Positions 9,285 to 44,102 of a DNA stretch of 64,000 nt are shown here, piece by piece. The notes under the pieces are model-generated. The model was given only the letters and a program-made list of their open reading frames with translations, searched no databases and had not been told where the DNA came from. The stretch covers positions 43,624 through 107,623 of the forward strand of contig CANHFG010000001.1 in NCBI GenBank assembly GCA_947459875.1, read 5' to 3'. Numbering within the stretch: position 1 is the first letter of the stretch; each line of letters opens with the position of its first letter. Position numbers and translations under genes: made by a program. This DNA is from Ignavibacteria bacterium (GTDB taxonomy: Bacteria; Bacteroidota; Ignavibacteria; Kapaibacteriales; Kapaibacteriaceae).

Positions 9285-10031
9285 ATGGTCACACGCCAAC
9301 ACCACGTGTTTTTACTGCTGGCAATGCTGATCGCCCCGTGGGGCGGTCTGCGGGCGCAGGTTACCGGCGGCGATCTTCCGGTGACGGACACCACCATCAT
9401 GTTCCGCCCGGTGCGCCCGCTGATGGACGATGTGACAAGTCAGGCGGTAGCCTATAACAGTGCTGGTGCGAACATTCTCCTGTCGTCCAGTGGCTGGGCT
9501 TTGGGCGGGTATTACGGTTTTGAGCTCGGCAGTGGCATAACGCTGAACATTGATGCCTTCATCAGCGGCCGGCGCAACACGGACGAGTTTGACAATGCGC
9601 TGCTCAACGGTGTGATCCCGATCGTCGCTGAAAAGGTCAACCGTCTGTTCATGGTGCCACTGACGGTATCGATACAGTACAGACTCTTTCGCGAATCGCT
9701 GCAGGAGACCTTTCGTCCGTATCTGGCCTTTGGTGCCACGGGCGCCGGCGTTATCCGGACTCCGTACATCGACGAGGGCGACTTCTACAATCCCCCCCGA
9801 TACTTTGAGTTTTTCGAATCCTTCGGCAGCGCAACGCTCTATCCACGGATGGGCGTGATGCTCGGAGGTGGTGCGGTGTTCGGCCCTGTCGGTAAGGGCA
9901 ACCAGGTTGGTGTCAGCGTCAAGTACTACGCCATCCCATTTGGTGGAGACGGACTTGAGAGCATCCGCGGCAAGCCGATCACCAACTTTGGGGGACTTTT
10001 CATCGCGCTCTCGATCGGTGCCGCGTGGTGA
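9285..10031 (+). CDS. Hypothetical secreted or outer-membrane beta-rich protein
   Basis: Signal peptide MVTRQHHVFLLLAMLIAPWGGLRAQ. Gly/aromatic-rich, ends in an aromatic residue. The ORF track starts at 9255; the ATG at 9285 gives a better signal peptide. Confidence 0.55.
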   Translation: MVTRQHHVFLLLAMLIAPWGGLRAQVTGGDLPVTDTTIMFRPVRPLMDDVTSQAVAYNSAGANILLSSSGWALGGYYGFELGSGITLNIDAFISGRRNTDEFDNALLNGVIPIVAEKVNRLFMVPLTVSIQYRLFRESLQETFRPYLAFGATGAGVIRTPYIDEGDFYNPPRYFEFFESFGSATLYPRMGVMLGGGAVFGPVGKGNQVGVSVKYYAIPFGGDGLESIRGKPITNFGGLFIALSIGAAW

Positions 10032-10071
10032 CCACCGCGCCGGAGGTGAACCTCCTGGGACTCTGCCTGGC

Positions 10072-10784
10072 ATGCCCATGAGCAAGGATCATCCCGACGG
10101 GGGCGAACTCGAGACGTGGACGTTTCGCCCGATCGGTCACGTTCGGACATCGCATGTGCGCCGATATGACGCGCCGCGTCAGCCCAACCGCGATATGCAT
10201 CGAGTTTCAGCAATCGTGGAACTTAGGGCGAATGAGAACTTCGAGCAGGCCGTACAGGATCTTGCCGGGTGCGAGCGGATATGGCTGGTAACCGTTTTTG
10301 ATAGGGTGGAGCACTGGAAGCCCCTTGTGCTTCCGCCTCGCGGACGGCGCAAGCGGGGCGTTCTGGCAACAAGGTCTCCTCATCGCCCGAATCCGATCGG
10401 GCTTACGTGCGTCCGACTGTTGCGTGTTGAGGGACGTATGCTGCATATCGAGGATACGGACCTGCTCGATGGTACGCCGGTGCTCGACGTAAAGCCCTAT
10501 CTGGCCTATGCCGATGCTTTCCCGGAGAGCAAGATCGCGTGGGTCGATGATCATCCAGAGCCGAACCATAGGATCATCTGGGACTGCGGGGAAGCGAGCA
10601 TACCGCCGGACGAGCGCCTATACGTCGAGCGCACGCTCTCGGCCGACCCGTTACCGCATCCATACCGTCGCATCAGATGCGTCGGACCGGACCATTACGT
10701 GCTGTCGCTGCGCCATGCGCGCTTCCGTTACCGCATTGACGGTGATACGGTTGTCATCCTCGGTTACACCGTAGATTTGCCGGA

Positions 10785-10788
<4 letters not shown>
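10072..10788 (+). CDS. trmO: tRNA (adenine37-N6)-methyltransferase TrmO (TsaA/YaeB family)
   Basis: [17 protein letters not shown]...[11 protein letters not shown] motifs. The ATG at 10072 follows the upstream stop; the ORF-track extension from 9868 overlaps the previous gene. Confidence 0.8.
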
Positions 10789-14453
<3,665 letters not shown>

Positions 14454-14456
14454 CCG

Positions 14457-15068
14457 GTGGTATCCGCCTTGCCGTTACGGGTTGCCGTGCTAGGCAGTGG
14501 CACGGGCACGAATGCCGAAGCGCTGATCGAACACGGTCTGCAGCCCGGCTCATCGTACCGCATTGTGCTTGTCGTTTCCACCCGGCCTGATGCCGGGATT
14601 ACCGATGTTGCCCGGCGTTTGGGCGTTCCCCTGTGCATTCTGCCCCCATCGGACTGGGAGGCTGCCCTGATCGGGGCTCTTCATGACAATGGCATCGCTA
14701 TTCTAGCCCTTGCTGGCTTCATGCGTAAGATCTCGCCGCAGGTTATCGACTCCCTTCACGGCAGAGTTGTTAACATACACCCCGCACTTTTACCTAATCA
14801 TGGTGGTAAGGGTATGTACGGAATTCACGTTCATCGGGCCGTAATTGCTGCCACCGAAGCCCTCAGCGGCGCTACGGTGCATCTTGTGACGGAAGAGTAC
14901 GACCAGGGCTCGATCATCGCACAGGCATCCGTGAAGGTGTTTGAGGACGATACACCCGAACAACTTCAGGATCGTGTGAAGCATCTTGAGCACGTCCTTT
15001 ATCCGCGGGCGCTGGAACAATACGCCAAACGCGTTGCGATCGAAGAATCTGGACAGGAAAATCGCTAA
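14457..15068 (+). CDS. purN: Phosphoribosylglycinamide formyltransferase
   Basis: VAVLGSGTGTN...NIHPALLP...HGG motifs, 203 aa. Confidence 0.9.
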   Translation: MVSALPLRVAVLGSGTGTNAEALIEHGLQPGSSYRIVLVVSTRPDAGITDVARRLGVPLCILPPSDWEAALIGALHDNGIAILALAGFMRKISPQVIDSLHGRVVNIHPALLPNHGGKGMYGIHVHRAVIAATEALSGATVHLVTEEYDQGSIIAQASVKVFEDDTPEQLQDRVKHLEHVLYPRALEQYAKRVAIEESGQENR

Positions 15069-15285
15069 TGCTAATTCCGTCCCCCCGCTTCACCGTGTGC
15101 AGAAAATTTGTTTGACTAATTCGCCCAAAATCTGAATATTGAGGGACGCTGAATGGGGCGGAGCGCATTGTTGCACATGTAACTAAGTGCATCCAGCAAT
15201 GTTGTTACGTCTCTTCATCGCCGAGAAGGCTGTTCAAAGTGAAAACCAAACACACATACTTCATCACAGTTTCATCGAGGTTTGC

Positions 15286-18200
15286 ATGAGCCGCAGACTG
15301 CTATTCCTTGTTCTCATGACGGGGCTTGTGAGCGTTTCGCTCGCTATGGCTGCCGACGAAAAGGATGGCGAAGACGTGTTGCGCAAGAGCGGACAGCGTA
15401 CGCCGGTGGCGTCCTATCCGCAGCCGTTCACGGCCACTGGGCCGAACGCGCGCACGAATCCAGCCATCTCCACGGGGTATTACTTCGTGGACTCGGACGA
15501 CGAGGCACCGGATTTCTGGCGCCCAGATCCATCACAGTTTGTCGACACACTGACCGAGCCCGGCACGTGGAGGCGAATCCTCTCGGGTGCAAAGCAGCTG
15601 CCGACGGCTTACTGGACGGATCCGACGCAAAACATTTATGGCGGTTGGGCATTTTTCCGGAACCCCGGTGATGTGCGCGACTCAACCGACAATGCGTTTG
15701 CCGGCCCGATCTCGATCGGCTTCCCGTTCTTCTTCAACGGCGTGCGTCAGGACTCATTCTATGTGTCGACGAACGGTCTGATCGCCCTGTCGAATCGCCG
15801 TTATTTCTACACGATCGATCAGTTCGGTTACCCTGTTGCTCGCCAAACGCTGGAAGTACGCCCAGGCGTGTTCTCGGCGTATGACCCGATGTCAGACGAC
15901 ACGCGTTCGCGAGCCGGTAATGGCATGACGGATGCAACCCTCGATAACTGGGGCTTCAACAATGTCGCTTGCGGCGGCAACCCTACTAGCCCTACGGCCG
16001 GTATTCGCGCGACAACCAACCGTATGATGGACGGCAATAGCATTGCTGCCAACTGGGGAAGCACACTTCCGCAACTCATCGCTCCGTCGTGGGATGACCT
16101 TCAAGTTTCGGTGTATAACCCCAACGATAACGCTGTTGATGATTTCTCGCGCGTATACTACAAGCGCTCGCCATCGAACGACAAGCTCGTTATCTACTAC
16201 GTGAACCTCACACCTATCGGTGCCAAGACAGCCCGTTCCGGTGGTGGACCTCAGTACAATGTGACGTTTGCAGCCAACAATCGCCCCGGCCTTGGTGAGC
16301 ACCTTCGCTGGTCGCTTCAAGTGACGCTGAATCGTAACGACAGTTCTGTTACGATCCAGTACGAGCGATTCTCGGGTCTTGCACCGCGCACGGCGATTTC
16401 TCCGTACGCTGCTACCGTCTGGATGCGTTGTAATTCAACGGTCGGTGTTACTGGTCCGGCTCGCCGTCTGAACTGGAACGGTTTCCCATCGGTGATGCCA
16501 GCGATCACAGCGCTGGACTTCGACACACCGAAGTACATGCAGAGCACAGAGTATCTTTACAATGTCGACGTTGACCCACAAGGTGGTGTGCGTGCTATCA
16601 GCTCGCGTAACGACGACAACACGGTTCCGAAGGACTTCCTGGCCATTAAGTTCAAGCAGTTCCGCAACGTTCTTCGCGTTATCAACGTGTCGTATCGTGT
16701 GCGTCAGCAGAACAACAATGCCAACCTCGCGTTCTCGGTGATTGTTCCTCCAGCGCAGGCCAACAACTACGAACTGCTTGCTGGTGAGGATCGCCTCGGC
16801 GCCATCCAGCCAGTGGCCATTGTTCAGAGCCTGACCAATGACATTCAAGGTCCGCAGGGCGTGAACTATGTTCCTCAGGGAACGAACTTCCGCGTGCGTT
16901 TCCGTATCGTCAATGAGGCAACAGGCAAGATCGTTTACAACACATCGCGTGCTGTGACGGATGCTGCACTTCGCGACACGAACATCTCGCAGGTGTTCCG
17001 TTGCGATATCAACGGCAACAATCAGCCGTATCAGCCTGCCGGCACGTTCGTACTCCCGTACGAGTTTATCAAGGTGATCTTCCCTCCATTCGAGCCGAAC
17101 CCGTTCATCGACGATCAGATCGGCCGTCTCCTGACGACGGTTATTGCCGAACCAAAGGACTCGATCAATCAGCCAATTGGCGATCAGTGGCCGTTTGACG
17201 ATACGACCAGCATTCGCATCTTCTCGATGCGCCGTCTGACGTCGTTCTCGGACGACGTCAACGAGTACCACCTCATCGGTGGTGCCGCTATGCCTTCGGT
17301 TCTCAAGTGGGTTAACATTGAGTCAGAAGTTGTTGATGGTGACGAGGTCACCAACAACCCACCGCCACCGCGGGGCGAATACGCTGCTGCCAACTCAGAC
17401 ATCTTCCGTCTGAAGTCACCAGTGATTCGAATGAATCGTCTCAACCTTGCCAACGTTGACATTCCTGTGATTGGCCAATACGGCGGTGACGAGCTTCGTT
17501 CCTTCCCGGTCAACCTCGTTCGTCGCAAGCGCGCTGTTCTTTCGATCTCCTATCAGCGTTCCGGTAAGCTCACGAACATCGGTCGTGGCTTCTCTGACAA
17601 CCGTCTGATCGGACCTGAGCACCGCGTTAACATGCTGGCCGTGAACGGTTTCACGCCTGGTTTCCGTAATCCTGACCGTCTGCTGGTCGAGTTCGCTCGC
17701 CCGTCAAATGACGGTATCACGGGCATTACGAACATCCAGAACTGGATCCTTGATTACATGGGCCGCGCGACACAGTATCTCCAGCCGTTCCAGGTCTGGG
17801 GTGGTGGTGGCTTTGCCCGTGGTTTTGACATCGCGGACTATAACCTGCAGCTGACGAACACCACGACGCCACCACTCGGTGGTCTGCGCGAGGACCTGTT
17901 CGATGATGGTAAGGATGCCGAGTATTACAAGGTCACGATTCCAATTCCTGACACGGTACTCCGCTGGGTCAACGAAGGCGCCCGTAACTTCCGCTTCCGC
18001 CTACGTGCCAGCTGCGTGATGAATTCGCTTCCTCCGGCTCCATCGGACGACGAAGACAACTTCTACGTTGACAACGTGAAGCTTCTCTTCCCGGACGAAG
18101 TCACGGACATCGAGTTCAGCAACATCCAGCTTATCTGGCCTTACACGATGGCACCAGCTTCGCAGGCCACGCGAGTGCCGATCCGTGTGAAGCTGTCGAA

Positions 18201-20013
18201 CAACACGAACATTGCCGCTCCGGCATTCTCGGTTAAGCTCTGGATCAAGCCAGATGGAAACGAATCACAGCAGATCTACTGCCGTTCGATCACGGTTCCT
18301 ACGCTCGCCGGAAACCGCGAAGTGATCCTTCCGTTCCCAGACGCAAACTTCCGCACGACGACGCCTGGTAATTACAAGATCACGGGTCGCATCTTCTTCC
18401 CTGGCAATGACCTTGATACTCTGAACGATTCGACGTTCACGATGTTCCGCATGACGTTTGGCCCTGCGTTTGCCTACGAAACCAACCCAGCGAATCCAGC
18501 GAACGACGTTCCGAAGATTCAGTTCTCGGGCGTAACTGGTAAGGGTCTGAACCACGGTGGATTCTCAGCTGGTGCTAACGGTTCAACCTGGCAGTCACTG
18601 CTGACGGGTCCTAACCAGCAGTACACGGCGGGTTCAACGTGGGGTACCTTCCCAGCGCCGCTTGCTGGTTCGCAGATGTATGGTGCTGATGCCGGTAACT
18701 CTTCAGGTCAGCTGGCAATGCGCTTTACACTTTACTCTCAGGACACACTTGCTGGTTACCAGGCTTTCTGGGCAGAACTCAACCAGGACGTTCTGAACAT
18801 CTCGTTCTCTCTCTATCGTGATCAGGGCGGTGTTCCAGGTGACGAGCGTATCGCTAACTCTACAATCCTGCGTCGCCGTGGTGAAGACGAAACGGGCGCA
18901 TTTACCGAGCCTCAGTTCGGTAAGTATGTCACGTATCTGCTCGCTACACCAGTAGTTATCCCACCGGGTGAATACTGGGCTTCGGTTGCTCAGATGGGTA
19001 CGGAAGGCTACGAACTTGGTGCCTCGGAAACACGTATGGGTATGGTGACGACGCTATACTCGGACGTTCCTGTGTTCGGTATCGGTAACCGCTCGCTTCT
19101 TATCGACAAGAACTTCCGCGTGCGCAATCGTGCCGGATCGCTTCTGAACGATAACCGCTTCGCGTATGAAATGACACGCTTCAGCGGTGACTGGGTTCCA
19201 TTCACGCCAACGATCGGTAACCCTGGTTATCCGCATCTTGACGCTATGGGTGGAAGCCTTGGTTATGCCACGTTCACACGTGGTTCATGGATCCCGCTGA
19301 TCCGTCCATTCTTCGGAAATCGGTCGTTCTCAAATCCTCCACTGTTTATTGACTGTGTGGAAAACCCTGTCGAACTGTCCTTCTTTGATGCAAAGGGACG
19401 TTCTGCTGGTGTGGACCTCTTCTGGGAAACAGCGTCGGAAAAGAACAACGTCGGCTTCCATGTCGAGCGCCGCGCCGTCAAGGAAGTACACAACCTTACG
19501 ACGGGCAAGGCTTCGTTCACCTGCGTTGACAACACGACAGATGCAAACAATCCTTGGAAGAACGTTGGTTTTGTTGCTGGATCGGGCAACTCAAATACGA
19601 CGTTGAACTACAAGTTCTTTGATGCTGATGTCACGACGGGAGTTTCGTATCAGTACCGTCTGCGTCAGGTCGACGCTAGCGGCGCGAACAACTTCTCCAA
19701 TGTTGTCGACGTCGAGTTCGGAAACAACGCCAGTGTTGCGCTCGACAATAGCTATCCAAACCCATCGAACGGCAAGACAACGTTCACATTCACGGTTCCA
19801 CAAAGCTCACGCGTCAAGCTTCAAGTGTTTGACCTCATGGGTAATGTTGTCAAGAATGTTTACGACAACGTCGTCGCCGGTCAGTCAGTAGCATACGCTG
19901 TTGAGTGGGATGGTCGTGGCGAAGATGGCGTCGATGTCGCAAGCGGCTCGTACATGTACAAGCTCACCGTTGGTGAGACCATCCTGTCGAAGACGCTGAC
20001 GATCGTTCGCTAA
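15286..20013 (+). CDS. Giant secreted protein of unknown function with a T9SS C-terminal sorting domain (paralog A, ~1575 aa)
   Basis: Signal peptide MSRRLLFLVLMTGLVSVSLAMA. C-terminus ...SYPNPSNGKTTFTFTVP...KLTVGETILSKTLTIVR has the Por/T9SS CTD pattern. No catalytic motif recognised. Codon usage is enriched in GGT/CGT/GTT/GCT. Confidence 0.85.
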   Translation: MSRRLLFLVLMTGLVSVSLAMAADEKDGEDVLRKSGQRTPVASYPQPFTATGPNARTNPAISTGYYFVDSDDEAPDFWRPDPSQFVDTLTEPGTWRRILSGAKQLPTAYWTDPTQNIYGGWAFFRNPGDVRDSTDNAFAGPISIGFPFFFNGVRQDSFYVSTNGLIALSNRRYFYTIDQFGYPVARQTLEVRPGVFSAYDPMSDDTRSRAGNGMTDATLDNWGFNNVACGGNPTSPTAGIRATTNRMMDGNSIAANWGSTLPQLIAPSWDDLQVSVYNPNDNAVDDFSRVYYKRSPSNDKLVIYYVNLTPIGAKTARSGGGPQYNVTFAANNRPGLGEHLRWSLQVTLNRNDSSVTIQYERFSGLAPRTAISPYAATVWMRCNSTVGVTGPARRLNWNGFPSVMPAITALDFDTPKYMQSTEYLYNVDVDPQGGVRAISSRNDDNTVPKDFLAIKFKQFRNVLRVINVSYRVRQQNNNANLAFSVIVPPAQANNYELLAGEDRLGAIQPVAIVQSLTNDIQGPQGVNYVPQGTNFRVRFRIVNEATGKIVYNTSRAVTDAALRDTNISQVFRCDINGNNQPYQPAGTFVLPYEFIKVIFPPFEPNPFIDDQIGRLLTTVIAEPKDSINQPIGDQWPFDDTTSIRIFSMRRLTSFSDDVNEYHLIGGAAMPSVLKWVNIESEVVDGDEVTNNPPPPRGEYAAANSDIFRLKSPVIRMNRLNLANVDIPVIGQYGGDELRSFPVNLVRRKRAVLSISYQRSGKLTNIGRGFSDNRLIGPEHRVNMLAVNGFTPGFRNPDRLLVEFARPSNDGITGITNIQNWILDYMGRATQYLQPFQVWGGGGFARGFDIADYNLQLTNTTTPPLGGLREDLFDDGKDAEYYKVTIPIPDTVLRWVNEGARNFRFRLRASCVMNSLPPAPSDDEDNFYVDNVKLLFPDEVTDIEFSNIQLIWPYTMAPASQATRVPIRVKLSNNTNIAAPAFSVKLWIKPDGNESQQIYCRSITVPTLAGNREVILPFPDANFRTTTPGNYKITGRIFFPGNDLDTLNDSTFTMFRMTFGPAFAYETNPANPANDVPKIQFSGVTGKGLNHGGFSAGANGSTWQSLLTGPNQQYTAGSTWGTFPAPLAGSQMYGADAGNSSGQLAMRFTLYSQDTLAGYQAFWAELNQDVLNISFSLYRDQGGVPGDERIANSTILRRRGEDETGAFTEPQFGKYVTYLLATPVVIPPGEYWASVAQMGTEGYELGASETRMGMVTTLYSDVPVFGIGNRSLLIDKNFRVRNRAGSLLNDNRFAYEMTRFSGDWVPFTPTIGNPGYPHLDAMGGSLGYATFTRGSWIPLIRPFFGNRSFSNPPLFIDCVENPVELSFFDAKGRSAGVDLFWETASEKNNVGFHVERRAVKEVHNLTTGKASFTCVDNTTDANNPWKNVGFVAGSGNSNTTLNYKFFDADVTTGVSYQYRLRQVDASGANNFSNVVDVEFGNNASVALDNSYPNPSNGKTTFTFTVPQSSRVKLQVFDLMGNVVKNVYDNVVAGQSVAYAVEWDGRGEDGVDVASGSYMYKLTVGETILSKTLTIVR

Positions 20014-20025
20014 GCGTTTCCTGAC

Positions 20026-20066
20026 GGAAATTCCAAAGCCCCCGACGTTCTGCGTCGGGGGCTTTT
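20026..20066 (+). terminator. Rho-independent terminator after giant gene A
   Basis: GCCCCCGACG-ttctg-CGTCGGGGGC perfect 10-bp stem followed by TTTTCTTTTTCT. Confidence 0.8.
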
Positions 20067-20090
20067 CTTTTTCTCCTGATATTCGCAGAT

Positions 20091-21065
20091 ATGAATGCTC
20101 GCCCCCTGCCCCAGGATGTTGCCGAAGCATTGCAATTGCAGCGCAATGCCTTGAATCTGCTTGAAGAGGAGATCAACGAAGAGTTTGACCGTGCCGTGGA
20201 TGCTCTTATGAATGCCGGTGGTATTGTTGCCACTGGAGTAGGGAAGTCCGGCTTTGTCGCTCGCAAATTCGCGGCATCGCTTGCCAGTCTTGGACTCCAG
20301 GCTTCGTTCATGCATAGCGCCGATGCACTTCATGGCGACCTGGGTGTTGTGCGGCAGGGAACGTCGGTGGTGATGTTCTCCAAGAGCGGAGAGACGGCGG
20401 AGCTCGTCAGTCTCTTGGACGCGCTGAAGTCCGAGGGCGTGACATTGATCTCGGTGACCTCACGTCGGGAAACAACCCTCTCCAATAGGGCGCACATACG
20501 CCTCGTTGCGCCAATCGACCGTGAGTATGATCGGATGAATATTCTGCCGACGGCAAGTACGACTACGTCATTGATCGTTGCCGACCTGCTCGTGATGTCC
20601 ATCGCTCACCGCCGGCCGGAATCAATGGATGTGCTAGCGCGCACGCATCCACACGGTTCGATCGGATCTCTGCTAGGTCAGCGGGTGCAAGATCACATGC
20701 ATTCCGGGGCATCGCTGCCTTCCATAGTCTCAGACGCGAAGTTGGACAGTGCCGTACACGAACTTGACCGTCATGCCTTAGGCATCGTTTGCGTTGTTCG
20801 GGACGGCCTGCTCCTGCGAGGTATCCTTACCGATGGAGATGTGAGACGGCTCGTCGAGCGAGGTGTTGATTTCGCCTCGGTGACTGTCGATAGCGTAATG
20901 ACTGCCGCGCCGACGACGGTTCCCTCTTCTGCCTCGTTGCATGAGGCGCTTATGCTCATGGAGTCACCCCAGCGCGCCATCGGCGTGCTCCCGGTTGTCA
21001 ATGGTTCCGAGCTTGTTGGCGTCATCCGACTGCACGATGTCGTCCGCGCTCAGATGGCAGGGTAG
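20091..21065 (+). CDS. kpsF: KpsF/GutQ-family arabinose-5-phosphate isomerase (SIS plus tandem CBS domains)
   Basis: GVGKSGFVARKFAASLASLG SIS motif and C-terminal CBS pair, 324 aa. Confidence 0.85.
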   Translation: MNARPLPQDVAEALQLQRNALNLLEEEINEEFDRAVDALMNAGGIVATGVGKSGFVARKFAASLASLGLQASFMHSADALHGDLGVVRQGTSVVMFSKSGETAELVSLLDALKSEGVTLISVTSRRETTLSNRAHIRLVAPIDREYDRMNILPTASTTTSLIVADLLVMSIAHRRPESMDVLARTHPHGSIGSLLGQRVQDHMHSGASLPSIVSDAKLDSAVHELDRHALGIVCVVRDGLLLRGILTDGDVRRLVERGVDFASVTVDSVMTAAPTTVPSSASLHEALMLMESPQRAIGVLPVVNGSELVGVIRLHDVVRAQMAG

Positions 21066-21067
21066 GA
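20968..21067 (+). repeat. Direct repeat copy 1 (the native 3' end of kpsF); its partner is at 25774..25873
   Basis: About 93 of 95 nt are identical to 25779..25873 (gcgccatcggcgtgctcc...cagatggcagggtaggag). Confidence 0.9.
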
Positions 21068-21160
21068 GGCGCAAGTGTAACATTATTGCCTATGTTTAGT
21101 TGTTAGCAGCAGGGCCATAGTAACCTGCGATGTATGATAACTGTTTTATGCGAGGACACT

Positions 21161-24100
21161 ATGAAACAGTCCGCCGTTGTCTATCTCGTAGCATTGTGTT
21201 CTTATATCAACACCGTTACTGCGCAGGAGAAGCAGAACGATGAAGCCATTGCCCAGCGACGAAGTCACACACATGCAGCAGGCTCGACGTATCCGCAGCC
21301 TTTTGTCGGGTCAGGTGCCAACAATCGTGAGGCCGTGGCTGTTTCATCAGGGTATTACTTCGTCGATTCGGACGAAGCCATATCAGACCCTTGGAAGCCC
21401 TCGGCAAATGAGTTTGAGGATACGCTTAACGACCGAGGTTCCTGGAAACGAATCGTTTCGGGACCAAATCAATACGATGCTTCATTTTGGTCTGATCAGA
21501 GACGAAATGCATATGGAGGCATGGCGTTTTTCCGCAATCCGGGCGACCTGAAGGATTCAACAGATGATGCCTTTGCCGGACCTATTGCCATTGGGTTCCC
21601 ATTCAGTTTCAACGGCGTTCGGCAGGATTCCTTCTATGTCTCCACCAATGGCCTGATTGCTTTTTCGAACAGACGCTATCACTATCGTACTGACGTGAAT
21701 GGTGCCCTTCTTTCACGGGAGCTTCGTCTTGCCAGCACAGGTGTTCTTTCTGCTTACGATTCACAGTCCGATGATCCGCGCCATCGCAGTGGGGACGGAA
21801 TGTCAGATGCCACAGACGACTCGTGGGGTTACACGGCCGTAGCATGTGCAGGCTCACCATCGAGCCCGAAAGCAGGAATACGAACAAAGCAGAATCTCAG
21901 GCTCGACAGCAATGGACTCAGTGCCGTATGGGGATCAATCCTCCCACAGGTAGTCGCTCCGTCGTGGGATGACTTGCAGGTTTCTGTCGTGAATGGGGCT
22001 GATCTGAGCGTTGATGACTTTTCCCGCGTGTATTACAAGCGTATTCCGAACAGTGACCGAATCGTGATTTACTTTGTGAATCTCACGCCGATTGGTTTGA
22101 AACGAGCTCGTATCGGTAACCAGCCCATCTCCGAGGTCGCCTTTGCTGCTAACAATCGGCCGGGGTTTGGTGAACATTATCGGTTTTCTGTCCAGGTGAC
22201 ACTGAACGGGGCCGACAGCTCTGTGACAGTCCAGTATGATCGTTTTGCAGGAACAGCCCCGAGACTCTCAGCCACCTCATATCCTGCACATGTCTGGATG
22301 CGATGCAACTCAACCGTAGGGGTGATCGGTGCGGCACGGCGTCTCGACTGGGCAGGATTCCCTTCATCAGTACCGGCCTTATCGGTGCTTGATTATTTGG
22401 TTCCGAAGTACGTACAGAGCACTGTGTATCTACACAACATCGATACCGATGCCACCTCTGCCGTGACGCCTTCAGGAGCATCGCCGCTTGGCCGTGATTT
22501 TCCATCGGACCGGCTAGCTGTGCGATTTGCGCAGCATCGTAATATGGTTCGTGCAGTCAGTGTTTCTTACCGGGTCCGCTCCCAACAGGCAGGCTCGAGC
22601 CTTGCCTACTCTACACTTGTGCCTTCCGGGTCCGTCGATGGCTATGAGGTTCTGGCCGGCGACGAACGCCTCGGTCCGTTACAACCCGTTGCGCTCGTAC
22701 AGAGCCTTTCAAATGACATTCAGGGACCGGCTGGCGTGAATTATCAGCGCCAGGGTATACAGATGCGTGTGCGATGCCGTATCCTGAACGCCTCGTCCGG
22801 TGACCTCGTCTACGACGTCTCGAAGGTTGTTACAGACGCGACACTTCGCGACACGAACATCTCTCAGACTTTTCGCGCTAACGCTGATGGCACGAATAGA
22901 CCATACGAGCCGTCAGGCCGAGCCGTTCTGCCATATGAGTACGTCAAGGTCGTGTTCCCAGCATTTGAACCCAATCCCCTAAACGCAAAGCATGTAGGTA
23001 CCCTCTTAACGAGGGTTTCTGTAGAGGCTCTTACCAGCGAAAGTGCGCCTATTGTTGACAGGTGGCCTTTTGACGACACTATTGCGGCGAAGCTGCATGC
23101 TCTCGTCCGACTGTCGACGTTAGCAGAGACCGGTGACGGCTATCACCTTCTCGATTCAGTGGCCATTCCATCACCGCTTCGTTGGGTGAATATCGGCGCT
23201 GAAGTAGTCGATGGTGATCGAACTACCTACCTAGCCCCACCGCCGATTGGCACAAGTAGATGTGCAAATCGTTCAGAATTTGTGTTGAACTCACCAGTCA
23301 TTCGCATGAACCGCGTACATCATGACGGCTCTGAAATCCCGAAGCCCGGTCAGTATGGCGGTGACGAGCTGAGGTCGTTTCCGATAGACCTTCTTGGAAA
23401 GAAAGGCGCAGTGTTATCGATCTCGTACCATCGCACGGGCAAAGGTGCGAAGACCGATAGGGGCTTTAGTGACCTGCGTCTGATAGGACCAGAACATCGC
23501 GTTGCCATGCTGACGTCTTCCGGTGAAATGAAAACCTACCGCGAGCCCGATAAACTTCTTGTAGAGTTTGCCAGGCCTTCAGACGATAGCGTTACCGGGA
23601 TCACCAACGTACAGCAGTGGGTTCTTGACTACCAAGGCCGACGTGCAGAGTACATGCAACCATTTCAGATCTGGGGAGGGGGCGGGAATGCCCGTGGATT
23701 TGACTCCCAGGACTACAATCGCCAGCTCTCGAGCGACCCCGTGTCGGGTCGAACGGGATTGATGCCAGATCTGTACGATGAAGGTAAAGACATTGAGTTT
23801 CGGAAGCTTTTCATTCAAATTCCTGATACGGTGTTTAGGTGGTCGGCGCAAGGGGCGCGCAACTTCCGCTTTCGTCTTCGAACACATTGCCTCAATCACG
23901 GGATTGCTGGTGGTCCCGTGGATGATAGTGACGACTTCTTCATCGACAATGTTAAGGTGCTGTATACGCAGGAGATCCCCGATATAGAGATGAGCTCGAT
24001 TCGGTTGCATCAACCCTATACCATGGCCCCCCCTACTCAACTAGGAAGCGTTCCTGTTCGATTCCAACTTTCGAATCTGAGCACTGTAGTCTCTCCGTCG

Positions 24101-25744
24101 TTTTCCGTAGCCGTGCAGATTACTCGTGACCCCGATGGCTCAGATCTTGATCGGATTGGTTGCGTCTATTTCCGCTCGATAACAATTCCTACTCTTCGAG
24201 CCATGTCAAGTGTCATACTTCCGTCTCCCGATGCCAGATTCGATGATTTGCCACCAGGGGCGTACACGATTTCCGCCAAGCTGTTCTTTTCCGATAGTGA
24301 TGCTGAGTCAGCAAATGACTCCACATGCACGCGAGTTGTCATTAATCATGGTAGCGTTCTGGCGTATGAGTACGATGCCGACAGCGCGATCAATCGCGTT
24401 CCGCTGCCTCAGTTCTCTGGTATCGCTGGCAAGGGGCTCAATGCTCCCGGCAATAGCATTGCAGCGTGCTTTACCATCGTTGCGAGCGATTCGATCCTCG
24501 GCTATCAGATGCTATGGGGAGAATTGAACAGCAATCCCGACCCGGTTGAGATCAGCCTCAAGATGGAGACAGGAGAACAGATCCTGGTTGATGTGCCCGG
24601 CTCCGCGATCGTAAGACTCCGCGGCATGGATGATCTCGTACCGGGAAGTAGCCCACAGTTCGGACGAAACATCACCTACAAGCTGCCGAAGCCGTTAAAG
24701 CTTAACAGAGGTCGGTATTGGATCAGTGTCCGTCAGCTAGCGGAAAGGGGCATTGAGCTCGGAGCATCGGCTGACCGCATGGGAATGGTGACAACGATGG
24801 TAACCGAAGCGGGTTCGGGCAAGGACAGCTGTCTTTCGCTCTATGCAGACAGAAACCTTCGTCGACGTCTGCGAAGCGGGACTATGATTAATGACCAGCT
24901 GTTTGCAAATCTGAGGTCGAGTCCGAGTGGTGCTGTTGATTGGTTTGCGCCAACCGGCGGTACACCACTGTTGCCGCATCTGGACATCAAGGGAACAGTG
25001 AGAGGTTTTGAGACATTTACTCAGGGGTCGTGGATTCCCATGATACGGCCGTACTTTGGACCACGCCTGCAGCGTTACTCGTGGTCGTGTTTCGTGCCAG
25101 TCGTCCTCTCAGCCTTCGACGCTCGCCGCCGAGGCGCAGCCGTGGATCTCTTCTGGCAAACGGAATCCGAGCTGAACAATGCCGGATTCCTCATCGACCG
25201 TCGCCCAACGGATAGTGCAACTATTCTGGATGTTCGTGCTCGTGGTCTGTCTTGCGCTGATCACTACCAGAGCAAGACGCGTCCATGGAGCGAAATTGGT
25301 TTTGTCTCCGGCAAAGGCACATCTGCGCAGCAAGCGGACTACAGCTTTACGGATGTGAGCGCGTCAGTCGATAGCGCATTTGAGTATCGACTCCGGCAGA
25401 TTGAGGCGGGTTCGGGAGTTGCATACTCTGGCGTTGTTTCCGTCCCGAGGGGCAACGATGGTGATGTTGCAATGGACGAGCCTCACCCCAATCCGTCGTC
25501 AGGAAGCATCGTTCTGTCATTCAAATGCCCGAATCGGTCCCTCGTGCGCTTAGAAATCATCGATGCATTAGGCCGGCCTGTGATTCTGCTTTACGATGAT
25601 GTCGTAGAGGGAGTGTCTCAACGATACGTTTTGGGCTGGGATGGAAGATCCAATAATGGCGCCGAGGTGCCAAGCGGAGCATACTTCTGCAAGCTGACGG
25701 CTGGGGGCACTACTGTGTCGAAGGTTATCACCATCACCAGATAG
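21161..25744 (+). CDS. Giant secreted protein of unknown function with a T9SS C-terminal sorting domain (paralog B, ~1527 aa)
   Basis: Signal peptide MKQSAVVYLVALCSYINTVTAQ. Collinear blocks shared with paralog A include GYYFVDSD, AFFRNPGD, AFAGPI-IGFPF-FNGVRQDSFYVSTNGLIA, QYGGDELRSFP, QPFQ-WGGGG-ARGFD, ARNFRFRLR and GASE-RMGMVTT. The CTD is ...HPNPSSGSIVLSFKCP...KLTAGGTTVSKVITITR. Confidence 0.85.
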   Translation: MKQSAVVYLVALCSYINTVTAQEKQNDEAIAQRRSHTHAAGSTYPQPFVGSGANNREAVAVSSGYYFVDSDEAISDPWKPSANEFEDTLNDRGSWKRIVSGPNQYDASFWSDQRRNAYGGMAFFRNPGDLKDSTDDAFAGPIAIGFPFSFNGVRQDSFYVSTNGLIAFSNRRYHYRTDVNGALLSRELRLASTGVLSAYDSQSDDPRHRSGDGMSDATDDSWGYTAVACAGSPSSPKAGIRTKQNLRLDSNGLSAVWGSILPQVVAPSWDDLQVSVVNGADLSVDDFSRVYYKRIPNSDRIVIYFVNLTPIGLKRARIGNQPISEVAFAANNRPGFGEHYRFSVQVTLNGADSSVTVQYDRFAGTAPRLSATSYPAHVWMRCNSTVGVIGAARRLDWAGFPSSVPALSVLDYLVPKYVQSTVYLHNIDTDATSAVTPSGASPLGRDFPSDRLAVRFAQHRNMVRAVSVSYRVRSQQAGSSLAYSTLVPSGSVDGYEVLAGDERLGPLQPVALVQSLSNDIQGPAGVNYQRQGIQMRVRCRILNASSGDLVYDVSKVVTDATLRDTNISQTFRANADGTNRPYEPSGRAVLPYEYVKVVFPAFEPNPLNAKHVGTLLTRVSVEALTSESAPIVDRWPFDDTIAAKLHALVRLSTLAETGDGYHLLDSVAIPSPLRWVNIGAEVVDGDRTTYLAPPPIGTSRCANRSEFVLNSPVIRMNRVHHDGSEIPKPGQYGGDELRSFPIDLLGKKGAVLSISYHRTGKGAKTDRGFSDLRLIGPEHRVAMLTSSGEMKTYREPDKLLVEFARPSDDSVTGITNVQQWVLDYQGRRAEYMQPFQIWGGGGNARGFDSQDYNRQLSSDPVSGRTGLMPDLYDEGKDIEFRKLFIQIPDTVFRWSAQGARNFRFRLRTHCLNHGIAGGPVDDSDDFFIDNVKVLYTQEIPDIEMSSIRLHQPYTMAPPTQLGSVPVRFQLSNLSTVVSPSFSVAVQITRDPDGSDLDRIGCVYFRSITIPTLRAMSSVILPSPDARFDDLPPGAYTISAKLFFSDSDAESANDSTCTRVVINHGSVLAYEYDADSAINRVPLPQFSGIAGKGLNAPGNSIAACFTIVASDSILGYQMLWGELNSNPDPVEISLKMETGEQILVDVPGSAIVRLRGMDDLVPGSSPQFGRNITYKLPKPLKLNRGRYWISVRQLAERGIELGASADRMGMVTTMVTEAGSGKDSCLSLYADRNLRRRLRSGTMINDQLFANLRSSPSGAVDWFAPTGGTPLLPHLDIKGTVRGFETFTQGSWIPMIRPYFGPRLQRYSWSCFVPVVLSAFDARRRGAAVDLFWQTESELNNAGFLIDRRPTDSATILDVRARGLSCADHYQSKTRPWSEIGFVSGKGTSAQQADYSFTDVSASVDSAFEYRLRQIEAGSGVAYSGVVSVPRGNDGDVAMDEPHPNPSSGSIVLSFKCPNRSLVRLEIIDALGRPVILLYDDVVEGVSQRYVLGWDGRSNNGAEVPSGAYFCKLTAGGTTVSKVITITR

Positions 25745-25773: not shown

Positions 25774-25873
25774 CCACCGCGCCATCGGCGTGCTCCGGGT
25801 TGTCAATGGTTCAGAGCTTGTTGGCGTCATCCGACTGCACGATGTCGTCCGCGCTCAGATGGCAGGGTAGGAG
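25774..25873 (+). repeat. Direct repeat copy 2: an orphan fragment of the kpsF 3' end
   Basis: Near-identical to 20968..21067 and starts within 30 nt of the giant gene B stop. The antisense ORFs 20771..21025 and 25618..25830 have near-identical translations (MTPTSSEPLTT...). Confidence 0.9.
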
Positions 25874-40085: not shown

Positions 40086-40180
40086 GTGTCGATGGCTCTC
40101 TGAAAATGTGGTAACTTTCCTAGTCACAAACATACGCGGCCGCACTGCGCGGCGTGCCGTTCAACCGTCGAGGAAAGTCT

Positions 40181-41518
40181 ATGAACATGTTGCGATTCGC
40201 CCTCTGCCTTTTTGTCTGCACCGCCGTTACCAGCGCCCAGTACTGGGAGCAGACGAGCGGTCCACCAGCACCTACGGTATGTCTGGCTGCGAATTCAAAG
40301 GGGCATGTCTTTGCCGGAACACAGTTCAGCAAGGTCTATCGCACGACCGACAGAGGTACCAACTGGGAGCCGTTGGAGAATGGCATTGCAACCGGGATGG
40401 ACTTTACCACGGTGGCTCAGATCAAGGTTGGCCCGAACGATGTGCTGTTCGCGGCGGTTTATGGTCTGGGTCTGCTTCGCTCGGATGATAATGGTGAGAA
40501 CTGGAGGAAGCTGGATCTCAAGATCAACAATATGACGCCATCGAGCCGGCTGTTTTTCCATCTCAAGCCCCTTGTCTCGGGTGCGCTGCAGATCTTCGTT
40601 GGTTATGACGGTGGTCCAACCAATCTCCTGATGCGCATCTCGAATGATGGCGGAGAGACATTCACCGAAGTGTCCCGCTCGAATATCCCTTCAGCGACGA
40701 ATTCTATCTTCGGTGTCTTCATCTCGCCAACCTCCGACAAGCTGTTCGTACTTGTGAGCTACAACAAGGGGCTCTACCGCACGACGAACGGTGGTGCCTC
40801 CTGGGCGCGCATCGATACCGATGCATCGTCCGGAGAGAGCGATGATACGTTTCGGCAGATGACCTCTGACGAAAAGGGGCATCTCTACGTCGGGCGCAAT
40901 GCGCTTCCCGGGTCAACAAAGACACCGAACGCAGTTGTCATGAAGTCCACCAATGACGGTGAATCATGGACCTATCTGACAAATGGCTGGGACAACCGCG
41001 ACGTGACGAACAATCGGATCAGCTCGATCTCCATTGGAAAGAACGGTCGGATCTGGGCCACACTGGAAAAGTCGTCGGGTCCGATGCTCAGCACGAACTA
41101 TGGCGAGTCGTGGTCAACGATCAAGGATGGCTTCGAAGGTGAAGACGGGGCCGCACGGGCGATCGTCATTGCAGCTGATGGAGCAGAGTACGTGGCACCG
41201 GTCTCGGGTTTCGTCATGCGTCACCTCGGCGCAGCATCTGTCAACGAGTACCTTTCGAAGCTGCGTATTGATGCCTATCCGAACCCGGCAACTGACCGGC
41301 TTCGCATTGATCTTGGCTCGCAGGATGCCGGAACATTTGATATCGAACTGGTCGATGCTGCTGGCCGTCAGGTGATCCCGTCGCACAGGGCGGTAGCCGC
41401 AGTCGGAGCATCCACAAGCGTGTGGCTGTCGACGAGCGAAATCCCGTCGGGCATGTACTCTGCCGTCATCCGTTCGAATGGTGGCGTGCGCTCGGTACCT
41501 GTGGCTGTTGTGCGCTGA
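40181..41518 (+). CDS. BNR/sialidase-like repeat protein with a T9SS C-terminal sorting domain
   Basis: Signal peptide MNMLRFALCLFVCTAVTSAQ. Six SxDxGxTW-type BNR motifs (TTDRGTNWE, SDDNGENWR, SNDGGETFT, TTNGGASWA, STNDGESWT, STNYGESWS). CTD ...IDAYPNPATDRLRIDLG...SVPVAVVR. Confidence 0.75.
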   Translation: MNMLRFALCLFVCTAVTSAQYWEQTSGPPAPTVCLAANSKGHVFAGTQFSKVYRTTDRGTNWEPLENGIATGMDFTTVAQIKVGPNDVLFAAVYGLGLLRSDDNGENWRKLDLKINNMTPSSRLFFHLKPLVSGALQIFVGYDGGPTNLLMRISNDGGETFTEVSRSNIPSATNSIFGVFISPTSDKLFVLVSYNKGLYRTTNGGASWARIDTDASSGESDDTFRQMTSDEKGHLYVGRNALPGSTKTPNAVVMKSTNDGESWTYLTNGWDNRDVTNNRISSISIGKNGRIWATLEKSSGPMLSTNYGESWSTIKDGFEGEDGAARAIVIAADGAEYVAPVSGFVMRHLGAASVNEYLSKLRIDAYPNPATDRLRIDLGSQDAGTFDIELVDAAGRQVIPSHRAVAAVGASTSVWLSTSEIPSGMYSAVIRSNGGVRSVPVAVVR

Positions 41519-41996: not shown

Positions 41997-42857
41997 TTAC
42001 GGCTGCACCCAATTCATCATCTGCGTAAAGGCCTCGAGGAATCCCGGCGTGATGCGCTCCACCGGATGCGTCATGCCGAAGGTATGTGTTGTGTTTTCGA
42101 TAACGGTCAGATTGGGCCCACCGGGTGCATGCAGGGCAAGCTCACGGATCTCGGCAAGGGGCACCGTGAGGTCCTGCGCGGCGTGAACAAAGAGCATCCG
42201 TCCATCGAGGCGCTCAACGGCCTGCGTCAGCGATAGCCGTTCGGCGTTTTCTTCGAGGTCATCCACAAAGCTCGCGTTGATTCGCACGGTCTGCCCGGTA
42301 CGCTGGTTGTTAACGTCTACATACCCGGCACGACGCCATGCCTCGGCCTGACGCGCGGTCCAGCGTGTCCACATGCCGACGGAGTTGAGTCCGACAACGC
42401 GCAAACTCGCTGCAACGGCATCGCGATTGAGCATAAGTTCGCCGGCCGCAACCTGGGCAATGCCTCCACCGCGTGAGTGTCCGGCAATAGCCAGACGTCC
42501 GTTCCAGCGCTGCCGAAGGGCGGCGAACTCATCGTGAGAGCGAATCTGCGCCAGAAGGTCGTGTACGTCGTCGACCTCGCGCGAAAGAGTATTGCGCGCA
42601 AAGTCATCGGGCTTTTGAACAAGCCACGCCGTGTTATCCATGCCATTCAGTGAGAAGCACATACGAAGAGCAATCATACCACCTGCAGAAGCCCCTTGCG
42701 AGATCCACGGAAGAAAGCCGTAGTTGCGAAAGCCCTTATGGCCGTGCAGGATCACCAGCAGTGGATGCTGCGAGGCATCCGAAGCCGGCATTGTCACGGT
42801 CGTGTGTATGAGATCTCCATGACGGTTCTGAACGCTGATAGCTGATTCGGAGATCAC
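41997..42857 (-). CDS. Alpha/beta hydrolase
   Basis: GHSRGG nucleophile elbow, 286 aa, overlaps the trmD stop. Confidence 0.75.
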   Translation of the reverse strand: MISESAISVQNRHGDLIHTTVTMPASDASQHPLLVILHGHKGFRNYGFLPWISQGASAGGMIALRMCFSLNGMDNTAWLVQKPDDFARNTLSREVDDVHDLLAQIRSHDEFAALRQRWNGRLAIAGHSRGGGIAQVAAGELMLNRDAVAASLRVVGLNSVGMWTRWTARQAEAWRRAGYVDVNNQRTGQTVRINASFVDDLEENAERLSLTQAVERLDGRMLFVHAAQDLTVPLAEIRELALHAPGGPNLTVIENTTHTFGMTHPVERITPGFLEAFTQMMNWVQP

Positions 42858-43567
42858 GATGCGTCCTCGCGGTCGGATAGCAGATCCGGACGCCTTTGCC
42901 GCGTGCGTTCAAGGGCCTGCTCGGCACGCCATTGACGGATCAGCGCGTGATTGCCACTCATGAGAACATCGGGCACCTTCTGTCCACGAAACTCCGCCGG
43001 CTTGGTGTAGAGTGGCGCATCAAGAAGCCCGTGCATGAATGAGTCTTCGAGTACGCTCTCGGCGTCTCCGACCACGCCCGGCACCAGACGGACGATCGCA
43101 TCGGTCAATACCGCGGCGGCGATCTCTCCACCGGTCAGTACGTAATCTCCGACAGAGATCTCGCGGGTGACGAGGACGTCGCGGATGCGCTGATCGATGC
43201 CTTTATAGTGTCCGCATAGCAGGATCATCGAACCTTTCAGCGATAGCTCGTTGCACGTCCGCTGTTCGAGCACGGCACCATCCGGACAGAGGTAGATGAC
43301 CTCTTCGTAGGCGCGCTCATTCTGCAGTGATTCGATGCAGCGGAAGACCGGTTCACATTGGATGACCATGCCGGCGCCTCCACCGTACGGTGTATCGTCG
43401 ATGTGGCGGAACGTATCGGTTGCATAGTCATGCAGATTGTGCAGCACGATCTCTGCAAGCCCCTTCTGACGGGCACGCCCGACGATCGAAGTAGAGATGA
43501 ACGACTCGAGGATCTGTGGCACCACGCAGACAATGTCGATGCGGATCGGCGATTCAAGCATCGTCAC
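42854..43567 (-). CDS. trmD: tRNA (guanine37-N1)-methyltransferase
   Basis: DDTPYGGGAGMVI, LLCGHYKGIDQRI, GDYVLTGGE and SGNH motifs. Confidence 0.9.
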   Translation of the reverse strand: MTMLESPIRIDIVCVVPQILESFISTSIVGRARQKGLAEIVLHNLHDYATDTFRHIDDTPYGGGAGMVIQCEPVFRCIESLQNERAYEEVIYLCPDGAVLEQRTCNELSLKGSMILLCGHYKGIDQRIRDVLVTREISVGDYVLTGGEIAAAVLTDAIVRLVPGVVGDAESVLEDSFMHGLLDAPLYTKPAEFRGQKVPDVLMSGNHALIRQWRAEQALERTRQRRPDLLSDREDAS

Positions 43568-44102
43568 GCTCCTCGTCGGCAGTACCCAGCTCGGCCAGTC
43601 CCGGCAGCAGGCGTATGGTTATCAACCGTGCCTGCGGATCGACCTTGAGAATCACATCGTCGATCACCGGCAGGGGGATCGTGCGGCCGCCGGGTAGTGT
43701 CATAACCCAGACATCGTTGGCAGGCATCAGCCATACATCAGTGATCGTCCCGAGGGTTTCGCCCGACTCATCAATGACCGTGCATCCCTCTACGTCGCCG
43801 ATGCGAAAGCGGCTCGATGCATCAATGCCGACATCCGAAGAACGGGCGTAAACAGCCTGATCGACGAGGGGCGTCACGGCTTCGGCCGTGACCACATCGC
43901 GCAGTCGCAGAGTTGTGCGAAACGCGGTCGATTCAAAGTGCGCAACCACGTGTGGCTGGGCAAAGTCACGACTGTAGCCGATGGCCACCTCAGAGCCCGG
44001 TGCAAGGGGGCGAGGCAGGACGACAACGTCCGTCAGGACCATCGTTCCATCGAGTCCATGCGAGCGTGTGATCACGCCCAGATACTCGTCAAACGTGCTC
44101 AT
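43554..44102 (-). CDS. rimM: Ribosome maturation factor RimM
   Basis: YLGVITRSHGLDGTMVL N-terminus, PRC-barrel C-terminus, located upstream of trmD. Confidence 0.85.
   Translation of the reverse strand: MSTFDEYLGVITRSHGLDGTMVLTDVVVLPRPLAPGSEVAIGYSRDFAQPHVVAHFESTAFRTTLRLRDVVTAEAVTPLVDQAVYARSSDVGIDASSRFRIGDVEGCTVIDESGETLGTITDVWLMPANDVWVMTLPGGRTIPLPVIDDVILKVDPQARLITIRLLPGLAELGTADEERDDA

Follow-up and report, generated by a model that had tools for sequence, protein, structure and literature searches.

Loci at which one expressed S-layer gene copy is accompanied by silent or variable paralogues are known from sap of Campylobacter fetus and slpA/slpB of Lactobacillus acidophilus. We know of no work on the cell envelope of the Kapabacteria, an uncultured yet widespread class found in lakes, hot springs and bioreactors. 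In Tannerella forsythia, the S-layer glycoproteins TfsA and TfsB are type IX secretion system (T9SS) cargo and form the dominant surface layer (PMC4175972, PMC7468200). Within the framework of translational selection, with the codon adaptation index (CAI) and Sharp's S as its measures, the class of highly expressed genes is set by ribosomal codon usage (PMC2891978, PMC2797632). Here, we report on gene A, which occupies positions 15286..20013 of the forward strand in a 64,000-nucleotide stretch of DNA, hereafter the window, from an Ignavibacteria bacterium of the Kapaibacteriaceae (contig CANHFG010000001.1). We consider it likely that the product of gene A is a very highly expressed cell-surface protein exported through Sec and the T9SS, and that long-term translational selection has shaped the codon usage of the gene.

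The gene A call (ATG at 15286, TAA at 20011-20013; 1575 residues, precursor of about 174 kDa, isoelectric point (pI) 5.5) is confirmed by public assemblies and gene callers, which give the same product, and the coordinates in an earlier sequence-only reading of this DNA were correct. That reading described an NNT-rich gene dominated by GGT, CGT, GTT, GCT, CCT/CCA, AAC, TTC and TAC, beside neighbours preferring GGC, CGC, GTG, GCC and CCG. The preference of the neighbours was borne out and, within its codon families, gene A is indeed enriched relative to the 43 other open reading frames (ORFs) of the window in GGT (55% vs 24%), CGT (45% vs 21%, co-dominant with CGC at 46%), GCT (34% vs 13%), GTT (39% vs 23%), CCA plus CCT (60% vs 29%, CCG still being the top single proline codon), AAC (74% vs 59%) and TTC (82% vs 60%). 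Only for TAC does gene A not stand out (61% vs 60%). Chi-square tests of gene A against the other ORFs gave p values from 1e-3 to 1e-13 for Gly, Arg, Val, Ala, Pro, Thr and Phe. The description as NNT-rich holds for the four-fold families, where T is raised, but not for the two-fold families, where C is raised, nor for ACG (63% vs 42%), TCG (47% vs 36%) and AAG (100% vs 77%). Gene A thus favours T endings in Gly, Arg, Ala, Val and Pro, C endings in the two-fold families and G endings in Lys, Thr and Ser, and its pattern is a narrowed codon choice rather than simple NNT-richness. Indeed, while the whole-gene shift is modest (GC at third codon positions (GC3) 0.63 vs about 0.68, T at third positions 0.26 vs about 0.20), 13 codons make up less than 5% of their family in gene A, a state reached by 4 codons in the background and by none in gene B, the downstream paralogue of gene A. 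The effective number of codons (Nc) of gene A, 41.5, is the lowest among the 45 ORFs ranked, where 57.5 is expected from GC3 at synonymous sites; this deficit of 15.9 is the largest in the window (median about 7). With a codon model built on gene A, it was the only ORF to score positive (+0.17 bits/codon).

We then compared this codon set with that of ribosomal genes. Ribosomal, EF-Tu and chaperone genes are absent from the window, the 8 kb upstream and the 10 kb downstream, and a tblastn search of 76 gene A loci with about 55 E. coli probes yielded nothing but rplK-rplA, at a distant locus (L077). This rplK-rplA gave a lineage-specific L11 seed, and six L11-guided look-ups reached six other Kapabacteria lineages: P0160 (64% GC), P0206 (bioreactor), P0123 (hot spring), P0180 (JBKBVP01), P0164 (CP058732-type) and P0260 (38% GC). 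A metagenome pattern was derived from an L11 peptide shared unchanged by 147 Kapabacteria variants, with third-position constraints that excluded the lineages already sampled and no constraint on T versus C at four-fold sites. Scanning with this pattern yielded 43 loci, among them an L11 family from freshwater that was new and rich in species. Our reference therefore consists of rplK-rplA-rplJ-rplL clusters from metagenomes, belonging to sister species of the same freshwater clade: the non-ribosomal genes on these contigs match the backgrounds of the window's clade in synonymous codon usage, and two of the loci (L284 and L288) best match L050, L022, L024, L023 and L047, L023 being a metagenome-assembled genome (MAG) of the same lake series.

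The ribosomal genes of the clade are strongly biased relative to the other genes of the same contigs, with Nc of 37-44 vs 50-57, T at four-fold sites of 0.32-0.43 vs 0.20-0.29, C at two-fold sites of 0.67-0.79 vs 0.48-0.63 and AAG at 0.87-0.97 vs 0.43-0.84; rpoB behaves in the same way. They use only CGT and CGC for arginine and about 48% GGT for glycine, prefer TTC, AAC and CAC, avoid CCC, ACC, ATA, AAA and TTA, and show raised CCA, TCG and GAA, and in this they repeat the peculiarities of gene A. Expressed as log-ratios, the shift of gene A relative to the remainder of the window correlates with the shift of ribosomal genes against their background at r = 0.74 in both sub-clades, while that of gene B is anti-correlated (-0.25 and -0.36). 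On ribosomal weights, gene A ranks first of 45 in the window (z about 4) and its orthologue ranks first in 15/15 clade loci, scoring at least as high as rpoB in one sub-clade. The genes next on these weights in the window, namely a 287-residue sigma-70, a T9SS BNR protein, ftsZ and glyRS, are plausibly moderately expressed. Sharp-type S reaches about 1.05 in the clade ribosomal genes; gene A has a value of 0.41, its orthologues span 0.15-1.0 and gene B lies at -0.83. The sequence-only reading had interpreted the codon usage as a mark of very high expression; it named horizontal transfer as the explanation should ribosomal genes lack the NNT preference, and took a CAI equal to that of the neighbours as contradicting both. 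In the sister species of the clade the ribosomal genes do share the codon set, and gene A stands well apart from its neighbours. The high-expression reading is favoured because of this shared set, and it is further supported by the conservation of the bias and by the opposed shifts of the codon families described below.

Four lines of evidence argue for selection without any reference set: the direction of the shift, the contrast with gene B, vertical inheritance and the conserved bias. First, T/(T+C) in gene A exceeds the background value for four-fold families (Gly 0.63 vs 0.37, Ala 0.52 vs 0.23, Pro 0.88 vs 0.37) and lies under it for two-fold families (Phe 0.18 vs 0.40, Asn 0.26 vs 0.41, His 0.29 vs 0.46), and A-ending codons show no increase. 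Since the two kinds of family shift oppositely, a single mutational pressure and a low-GC donor are both excluded as the source, and the opposed shifts are the signature of selection, not mutation. A transcription-associated or strand-specific mutational bias, for instance from C to T along the coding strand, or a regional effect on composition might still be considered, as heavy transcription can bias mutation and the 16-19 kb part of the window has a negative GC skew with T exceeding A. We regard this explanation as very improbable: T/(T+C) is raised in Gly, Ala, Pro, Val and Arg yet lowered in Phe, Asn, Asp and His; the pattern is missing from gene B and kpsF, which share strand and region with gene A; and the preference for ACG, TCG and CCA, like the avoidance of CCC and ACC, is codon-specific and common to ribosomal genes elsewhere in the genome. 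Altogether, the bias of gene A goes beyond base composition, does not follow one mutational direction and resembles that of ribosomal genes from sister species, as expected for a member of the highly expressed class.

Second, gene B (21134..25744, forward strand, 1536 residues) provides an internal control. Lying on the same strand 1.1 kb downstream of gene A, it is a full-length paralogue (49% identity over about 1586 positions) with a T9SS tail, and it has an Nc of 57, almost no bias and a uniform AT shift. Because this paralogue is unbiased, neither architecture, amino-acid composition nor location can explain the codon usage of gene A. An amino-acid-composition artefact was also rejected, as all comparisons were made within synonymous families, with gene B as the control. 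Gene B is missing in a sister strain (L011, 5135-5152), where kpsF abuts an HTH_25 gene. In the window it is enclosed by a 100-nt direct repeat on the forward strand, the left copy of which forms the 3' end of kpsF (20969..21068) and the right copy of which, 97% identical, lies 4805 nt away (25774..25873). Compared with the copy at locus L018, synonymous divergence at four-fold sites (K4) is 0.05 for gene B, and about six-fold more for the flanking genes (0.15-0.47). These features suggest that gene B may be a recently exchanged, recombination-mobilised cassette; horizontal transfer fits gene B, not gene A.

Tandem arrangements recur elsewhere, with three copies in L062 and L063 (about 9956-24478) and two in L018, L028, L052, L074 and L086. 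Where the first copy is strongly adapted (L018, L028, L052, L062 and L063), the downstream copies are all unbiased. In a comparison of about 40 genomes, tandem B-type copies were always so.

Third, gene A is vertically inherited. In the window the gene order is metH-purN-A-kpsF, followed by gene B; purN (14457-15068) adjoins gene A upstream and kpsF (20091-21065, forward strand) lies between genes A and B. A scan of reference genomes found gene A relatives in 307 species, and in about 44 species an orthologue of 65-97% identity has kept the same metH-purN-A-kpsF context. Contigs matching the window are also present in many freshwater metagenomes. The length of the homologues is tightly conserved across the class (1500-1620 residues); where they bear a name at all, it is that of a hypothetical protein or a T9SS protein from Kapabacteria, Ignavibacteria or "Bacteroidota" MAGs. 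At the protein level, gene A is as conserved as core enzymes, with 93% identity to its counterpart at locus L045, against 86% for metH, 90% for purM and 95% for lipA. Finally, across about 40 genomes with background GC3 at synonymous sites of 0.42-0.67, no other gene of the locus has an Nc deficit as large as that of the orthologue, and the direction of the bias is always the same.

These observations bear directly on the possibility, raised as the alternative in the sequence-only reading, that gene A was acquired from a lower-GC donor and that its codons are an unameliorated donor signature. Some features of the region would suit it. The 15-26 kb part of the window is lower in GC than the remainder, the adjacent gene B does look transferred, and the flanking purN and kpsF have lowered GC3 (0.58-0.62) and are unusually diverged among strains: between close relatives they are 53-68% and 63-85% identical respectively, vs 86-97% for gene A, metH and lipA. 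The borders of gene A look like recombination or replacement hot spots. For gene A itself, however, the conserved synteny, the opposed family shifts and the contrast with gene B contradict a transfer, and its protein identity follows that of core enzymes. A gene from a lower-GC donor would not be expected to move its two-fold families to C, away from T, with A-ending codons flat; a foreign gene would also fall on the Nc curve, while gene A lies well under the GC3 expectation. Its codon set moreover agrees with the ribosomal genes of the clade, and the bias holds in genomes whose background is less GC-rich than gene A. Unlike gene B, which has the marks of an island gene, gene A occupies the same locus in all clade genomes and its shift is non-uniform. 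We therefore judge acquisition of gene A from such a donor to be extremely improbable, and retain selection for high expression as the probable cause of its codon usage.

Side by side with these findings, the MAGs that carry 65-97% identical orthologues in synteny (L017-L060) bear inconsistent NCBI organism labels, among them Chitinophaga pinensis, Patescibacteria group, Hyphomicrobiales, Bradyrhizobiaceae, Melioribacter, Didemnitutus, Ignavibacteria and Kapaibacterium. Evidently, many of these labels are wrong.

Outside the freshwater clade, the ribosomal genes at L103, L077 and L113 are visibly biased and lean broadly in the direction of gene A: they show raised GGT/GGC, CGT/CGC and C-ending two-fold codons and lowered GGG/GGA, CGA/CGG and ATA, and the shift of gene A correlates positively with the ribosomal shift in 4/4 other lineages compared (r 0.19-0.42). 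Ribosomal genes of the 64%-GC lineage have little bias, with T-ending codons not enriched (L093), and almost no selected bias across L093-L102; set against the fairly strong bias of the freshwater ribosomal genes, this suggests that growth strategies differ strongly within the class. In two outgroups, the gene A homologue stood at 8/35 and 8/27 on ribosomal weights, towards the ribosomal end of the distribution; this comparison is of limited power and weakly supportive, as the homologues there are barely biased.

Several points weigh against translational selection for high expression. The ribosomal reference comes from sister species, and it was tied to the clade through its match in codon usage, its habitat and elimination, no contig being shared. 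Within the sub-clade of the window itself, the bias in two-fold families is weaker (S 0.15-0.41), and ATT is slightly raised in gene A, which for isoleucine is the wrong direction. Alanine is the one family in which gene A and the ribosomal genes disagree, the latter using GCA at 0.43-0.54 and gene A using GCT at 0.34 and GCA at only 0.16. Homologues in distant Kapabacteria lineages are weakly biased. At short range, synonymous divergence of gene A is not reduced (K4 0.42 vs 0.15-0.47 for its neighbours, against L018); K4 is informative as a test of selection only at saturation, where it mostly restates the shared bias. Our search of the literature on T9SS or expression in Kapabacteria found nothing relevant.

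The disagreement in alanine also bears on another possibility, namely that synonymous sites are selected for accuracy or processivity, for co-translational folding and export of a long all-beta protein, or for mRNA stability. The gene A protein is indeed very long and all-beta, and translation errors cost more in long proteins. A position-specific constraint is furthermore implied by a conserved, poorly adapted 5' ramp: the first 100-150 codons (15286..15735, forward strand) are background-like or poorly adapted, codons 1-100 (the first three bins) score negative or about zero on ribosomal weights in 20/20 orthologues, and adaptation is confined to the remaining 1450 or so codons, behind the signal peptide and the N-terminal stretch. 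In general, 5' ends and signal peptides are known to tend towards non-optimal codons, and the ramp resembles this pattern. Nonetheless, other long genes of the window are unbiased, including gene B (1536 residues), an S8/FG-GAP protein (1413 residues) and metH (1222 residues), and length-driven accuracy selection was rejected for this reason. The preferred codons are also those of ribosomal proteins and rpoB, as selection driven by abundance predicts. While selection for accuracy and for expression level can coexist, we consider it unlikely that causes of this kind, rather than high expression, account for the bias of gene A.

The surroundings of gene A are consistent with strong expression. 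Indeed, a consensus scan identified a promoter-like block at 15112..15140 of the forward strand (TTGACT at 15112-15117, a 17-nt spacer and AATATT at 15135-15140), preceded by a conserved TTTG. Across the upstream regions of 12 orthologues this block hardly varies, unlike the diverging intergenic DNA around it, and it probably acts as a promoter. The leader spans about 145 nt (15141..15285, forward strand), and in the alignment of the 12 orthologues its last 45 nt or so (15240-15285; ACACATACTTCATCACAGTTTCATCGAGGTTTGC) are nearly invariant although the orthologous proteins differ by 20%. The end of the leader is A/C-rich and closes in a GAGG Shine-Dalgarno motif at 15277-15280, 5 nt before the ATG. 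Such a conserved leader may be translation-enhancing or regulatory. Between gene A and kpsF lies an intrinsic terminator (20035..20075, forward strand) with a 14-bp stem including 9 G-C pairs, a 3-nt loop and a T-run. Because of the conserved block, the leader and the terminator, gene A looks like an autonomous, tightly terminated unit.

The encoded protein carries export signals at both ends. The N-terminal Sec signal peptide, read by eye from the translation, covers residues 1-22 (MSRRLLFLVLMTGLVSVSLAMA; 15286..15351, forward strand) and is followed by ADEK, the cleavage site being tentatively placed by an AxA motif. The T9SS export tag proposed from the sequence was confirmed as a type-A C-terminal sorting domain (CTD) at residues 1490-1572 (19753..20001, forward strand), with a match to NCBIfam TIGR04183 at 32.5 bits (cut-off 23) and one to Pfam PF18962 at 23 bits, under the gathering cut-off of 27. 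A profile of the gene A homologues also matches the CTD of PorU (6za2) and the FlgD immunoglobulin (Ig)-like domain, and the domain is predicted to be a beta-sandwich. Gene A thus has both hallmarks of type-A T9SS cargo. T9SS core genes are absent from the window; a functioning T9SS is implied by other CTD-bearing genes nearby, a BNR/sortilin protein (40154-41518) and an 820-residue Ig protein upstream.

The approximately 1470 residues between the signal peptide and the CTD have no sequence match in Pfam, NCBIfam or the PDB, and no internal repeats were detected in the protein. AlphaFold models of two overlapping halves were of good confidence (pLDDT 84.5 and 83.7) and are almost wholly beta. 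Foldseek searches of the PDB matched them only with single Ig-like, CARDB, macroglobulin or FN3-type modules at TM-scores of 0.1-0.15, including the archaeal S-layer protein 7ptp, a large adhesin repeat and PorU. The mature protein is of about 172 kDa, acidic (pI 5.5) and low in Cys (0.44%). Its predicted features fit a structural surface protein, and a lattice-forming, S-layer role is plausible by analogy, with indirect support from the codon adaptation, the acidic pI, the low Cys content and the all-beta multidomain model; in the Pfam, NCBIfam and PDB searches we found no homology to known S-layer families or anchoring modules (SLH, TfsA/B, RsaA).

Altogether, we can propose the following scheme. 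Gene A would be transcribed as a stand-alone unit from its promoter-like block, with its Shine-Dalgarno-bearing leader and strong terminator. A heavy ribosome load on its mRNA would cause synonymous mutations to poorly decoded codons (GGG/GGA, CGA/CGG/AGR, CCC, ACC, ATA, AAA, TTA/TTG and the NNT codons of two-fold families) to be selected against, such that the gene would converge on the restricted codon set of the ribosomal-protein and RNA-polymerase genes of its lineage. The signal peptide would direct the product to the periplasm and the type-A CTD to the T9SS, and the protein would probably be fixed to the outer surface, by analogy with other type-A cargo. As a more tentative extension, to which we give only a minor chance of being right, gene A could encode the monomer of an unrecognised T9SS-dependent surface coat (S-layer or sheath) with an all-beta architecture of about 1470 residues, the gene B-type copies being variant cassettes exchanged among strains. 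If so, this coat would cover Kapabacteria cells with an architecture that has no solved or characterised relative, and the exchangeable cassettes, of which up to two extra copies exist elsewhere, would diversify the surface against phages or grazers.

Codon adaptation flags a conserved 174-kDa T9SS cargo, everywhere annotated as "hypothetical protein", as probably among the most abundant Kapabacteria proteins. The gene A family, uncharacterised and conserved class-wide, is a likely dominant component of the envelope, and makes a target for metaproteomics, antibodies, labelling akin to fluorescence in situ hybridisation, cryo-electron tomography and phage-receptor studies. Our results also place freshwater Kapabacteria lineages under fairly strong translational selection (S about 1), which bears on their growth strategy. 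Finally, an adapted gene A beside an unadapted, recently exchanged gene B offers a clean natural case in which selection and transfer can be told apart.

Some further observations concern other genes. In the window, rimM-trmD (42854-44102) lacks its usual flanking rpsP and rplS, and the 287-residue sigma-70 gene (44145-45008) lies upstream instead. The latter has the second largest Nc deficit in the window, is fourth on ribosomal codon weights and encodes a short sigma-70 that may be the housekeeping factor. In the bioreactor lineage, a 69-residue ORF matching the L7/L12 C-terminal domain follows rplL (L104 12268-12477, L107 12270-12479, L109 6644-6853 and L110 3766-3975) and looks like a partial duplication of rplL.

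Compared with known members of the highly expressed class, gene A shows a codon set restricted in the same way as in ribosomal-protein and RNA-polymerase genes, with C-ending Phe, Asn, Tyr, His and Asp codons and GGT and CGT preferred, AGR, CGA, CGG, GGG and ATA avoided, a low Nc for its GC3 and conservation in relatives. It differs from them in its choice of alanine codon (GCT rather than GCA) and in that it belongs neither to translation nor to core metabolism but encodes a predicted secreted protein of 1575 residues. Among surface proteins, the gliding adhesins SprB and RemA of Flavobacterium are likewise giant beta-rich T9SS cargo, but they have type-B CTDs, are highly repetitive and vary between lineages, whereas the gene A protein has a type-A CTD (TIGR04183), no detected repeats, and a length and sequence conserved class-wide. 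By analogy, TfsA/TfsB would be the closest known counterpart in kind: these proteins exceed 1100 residues, have a signal peptide and a T9SS CTD and are encoded in tandem, and genes A and B are likewise giant, tandem, CTD-bearing and beta-rich. There is no detectable homology to gene A outside the CTD, and while Tannerella co-expresses both proteins as lattice components, codon adaptation is here limited to the first copy, the second varying between strains. In this last respect the locus recalls the sap and slp families. It differs from them in that neither promoter inversion nor the exchange of cassettes into the expressed site is in evidence at this locus, and in that the repeats copy the 3' end of kpsF rather than conserved 5' regions of surface-protein genes. 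It resembles them in that a strong surface-protein gene stands beside adjacent paralogues; in those families recombination between repeats alters the repertoire, and here gene B, set between its 100-nt direct repeats, is present or absent according to strain.

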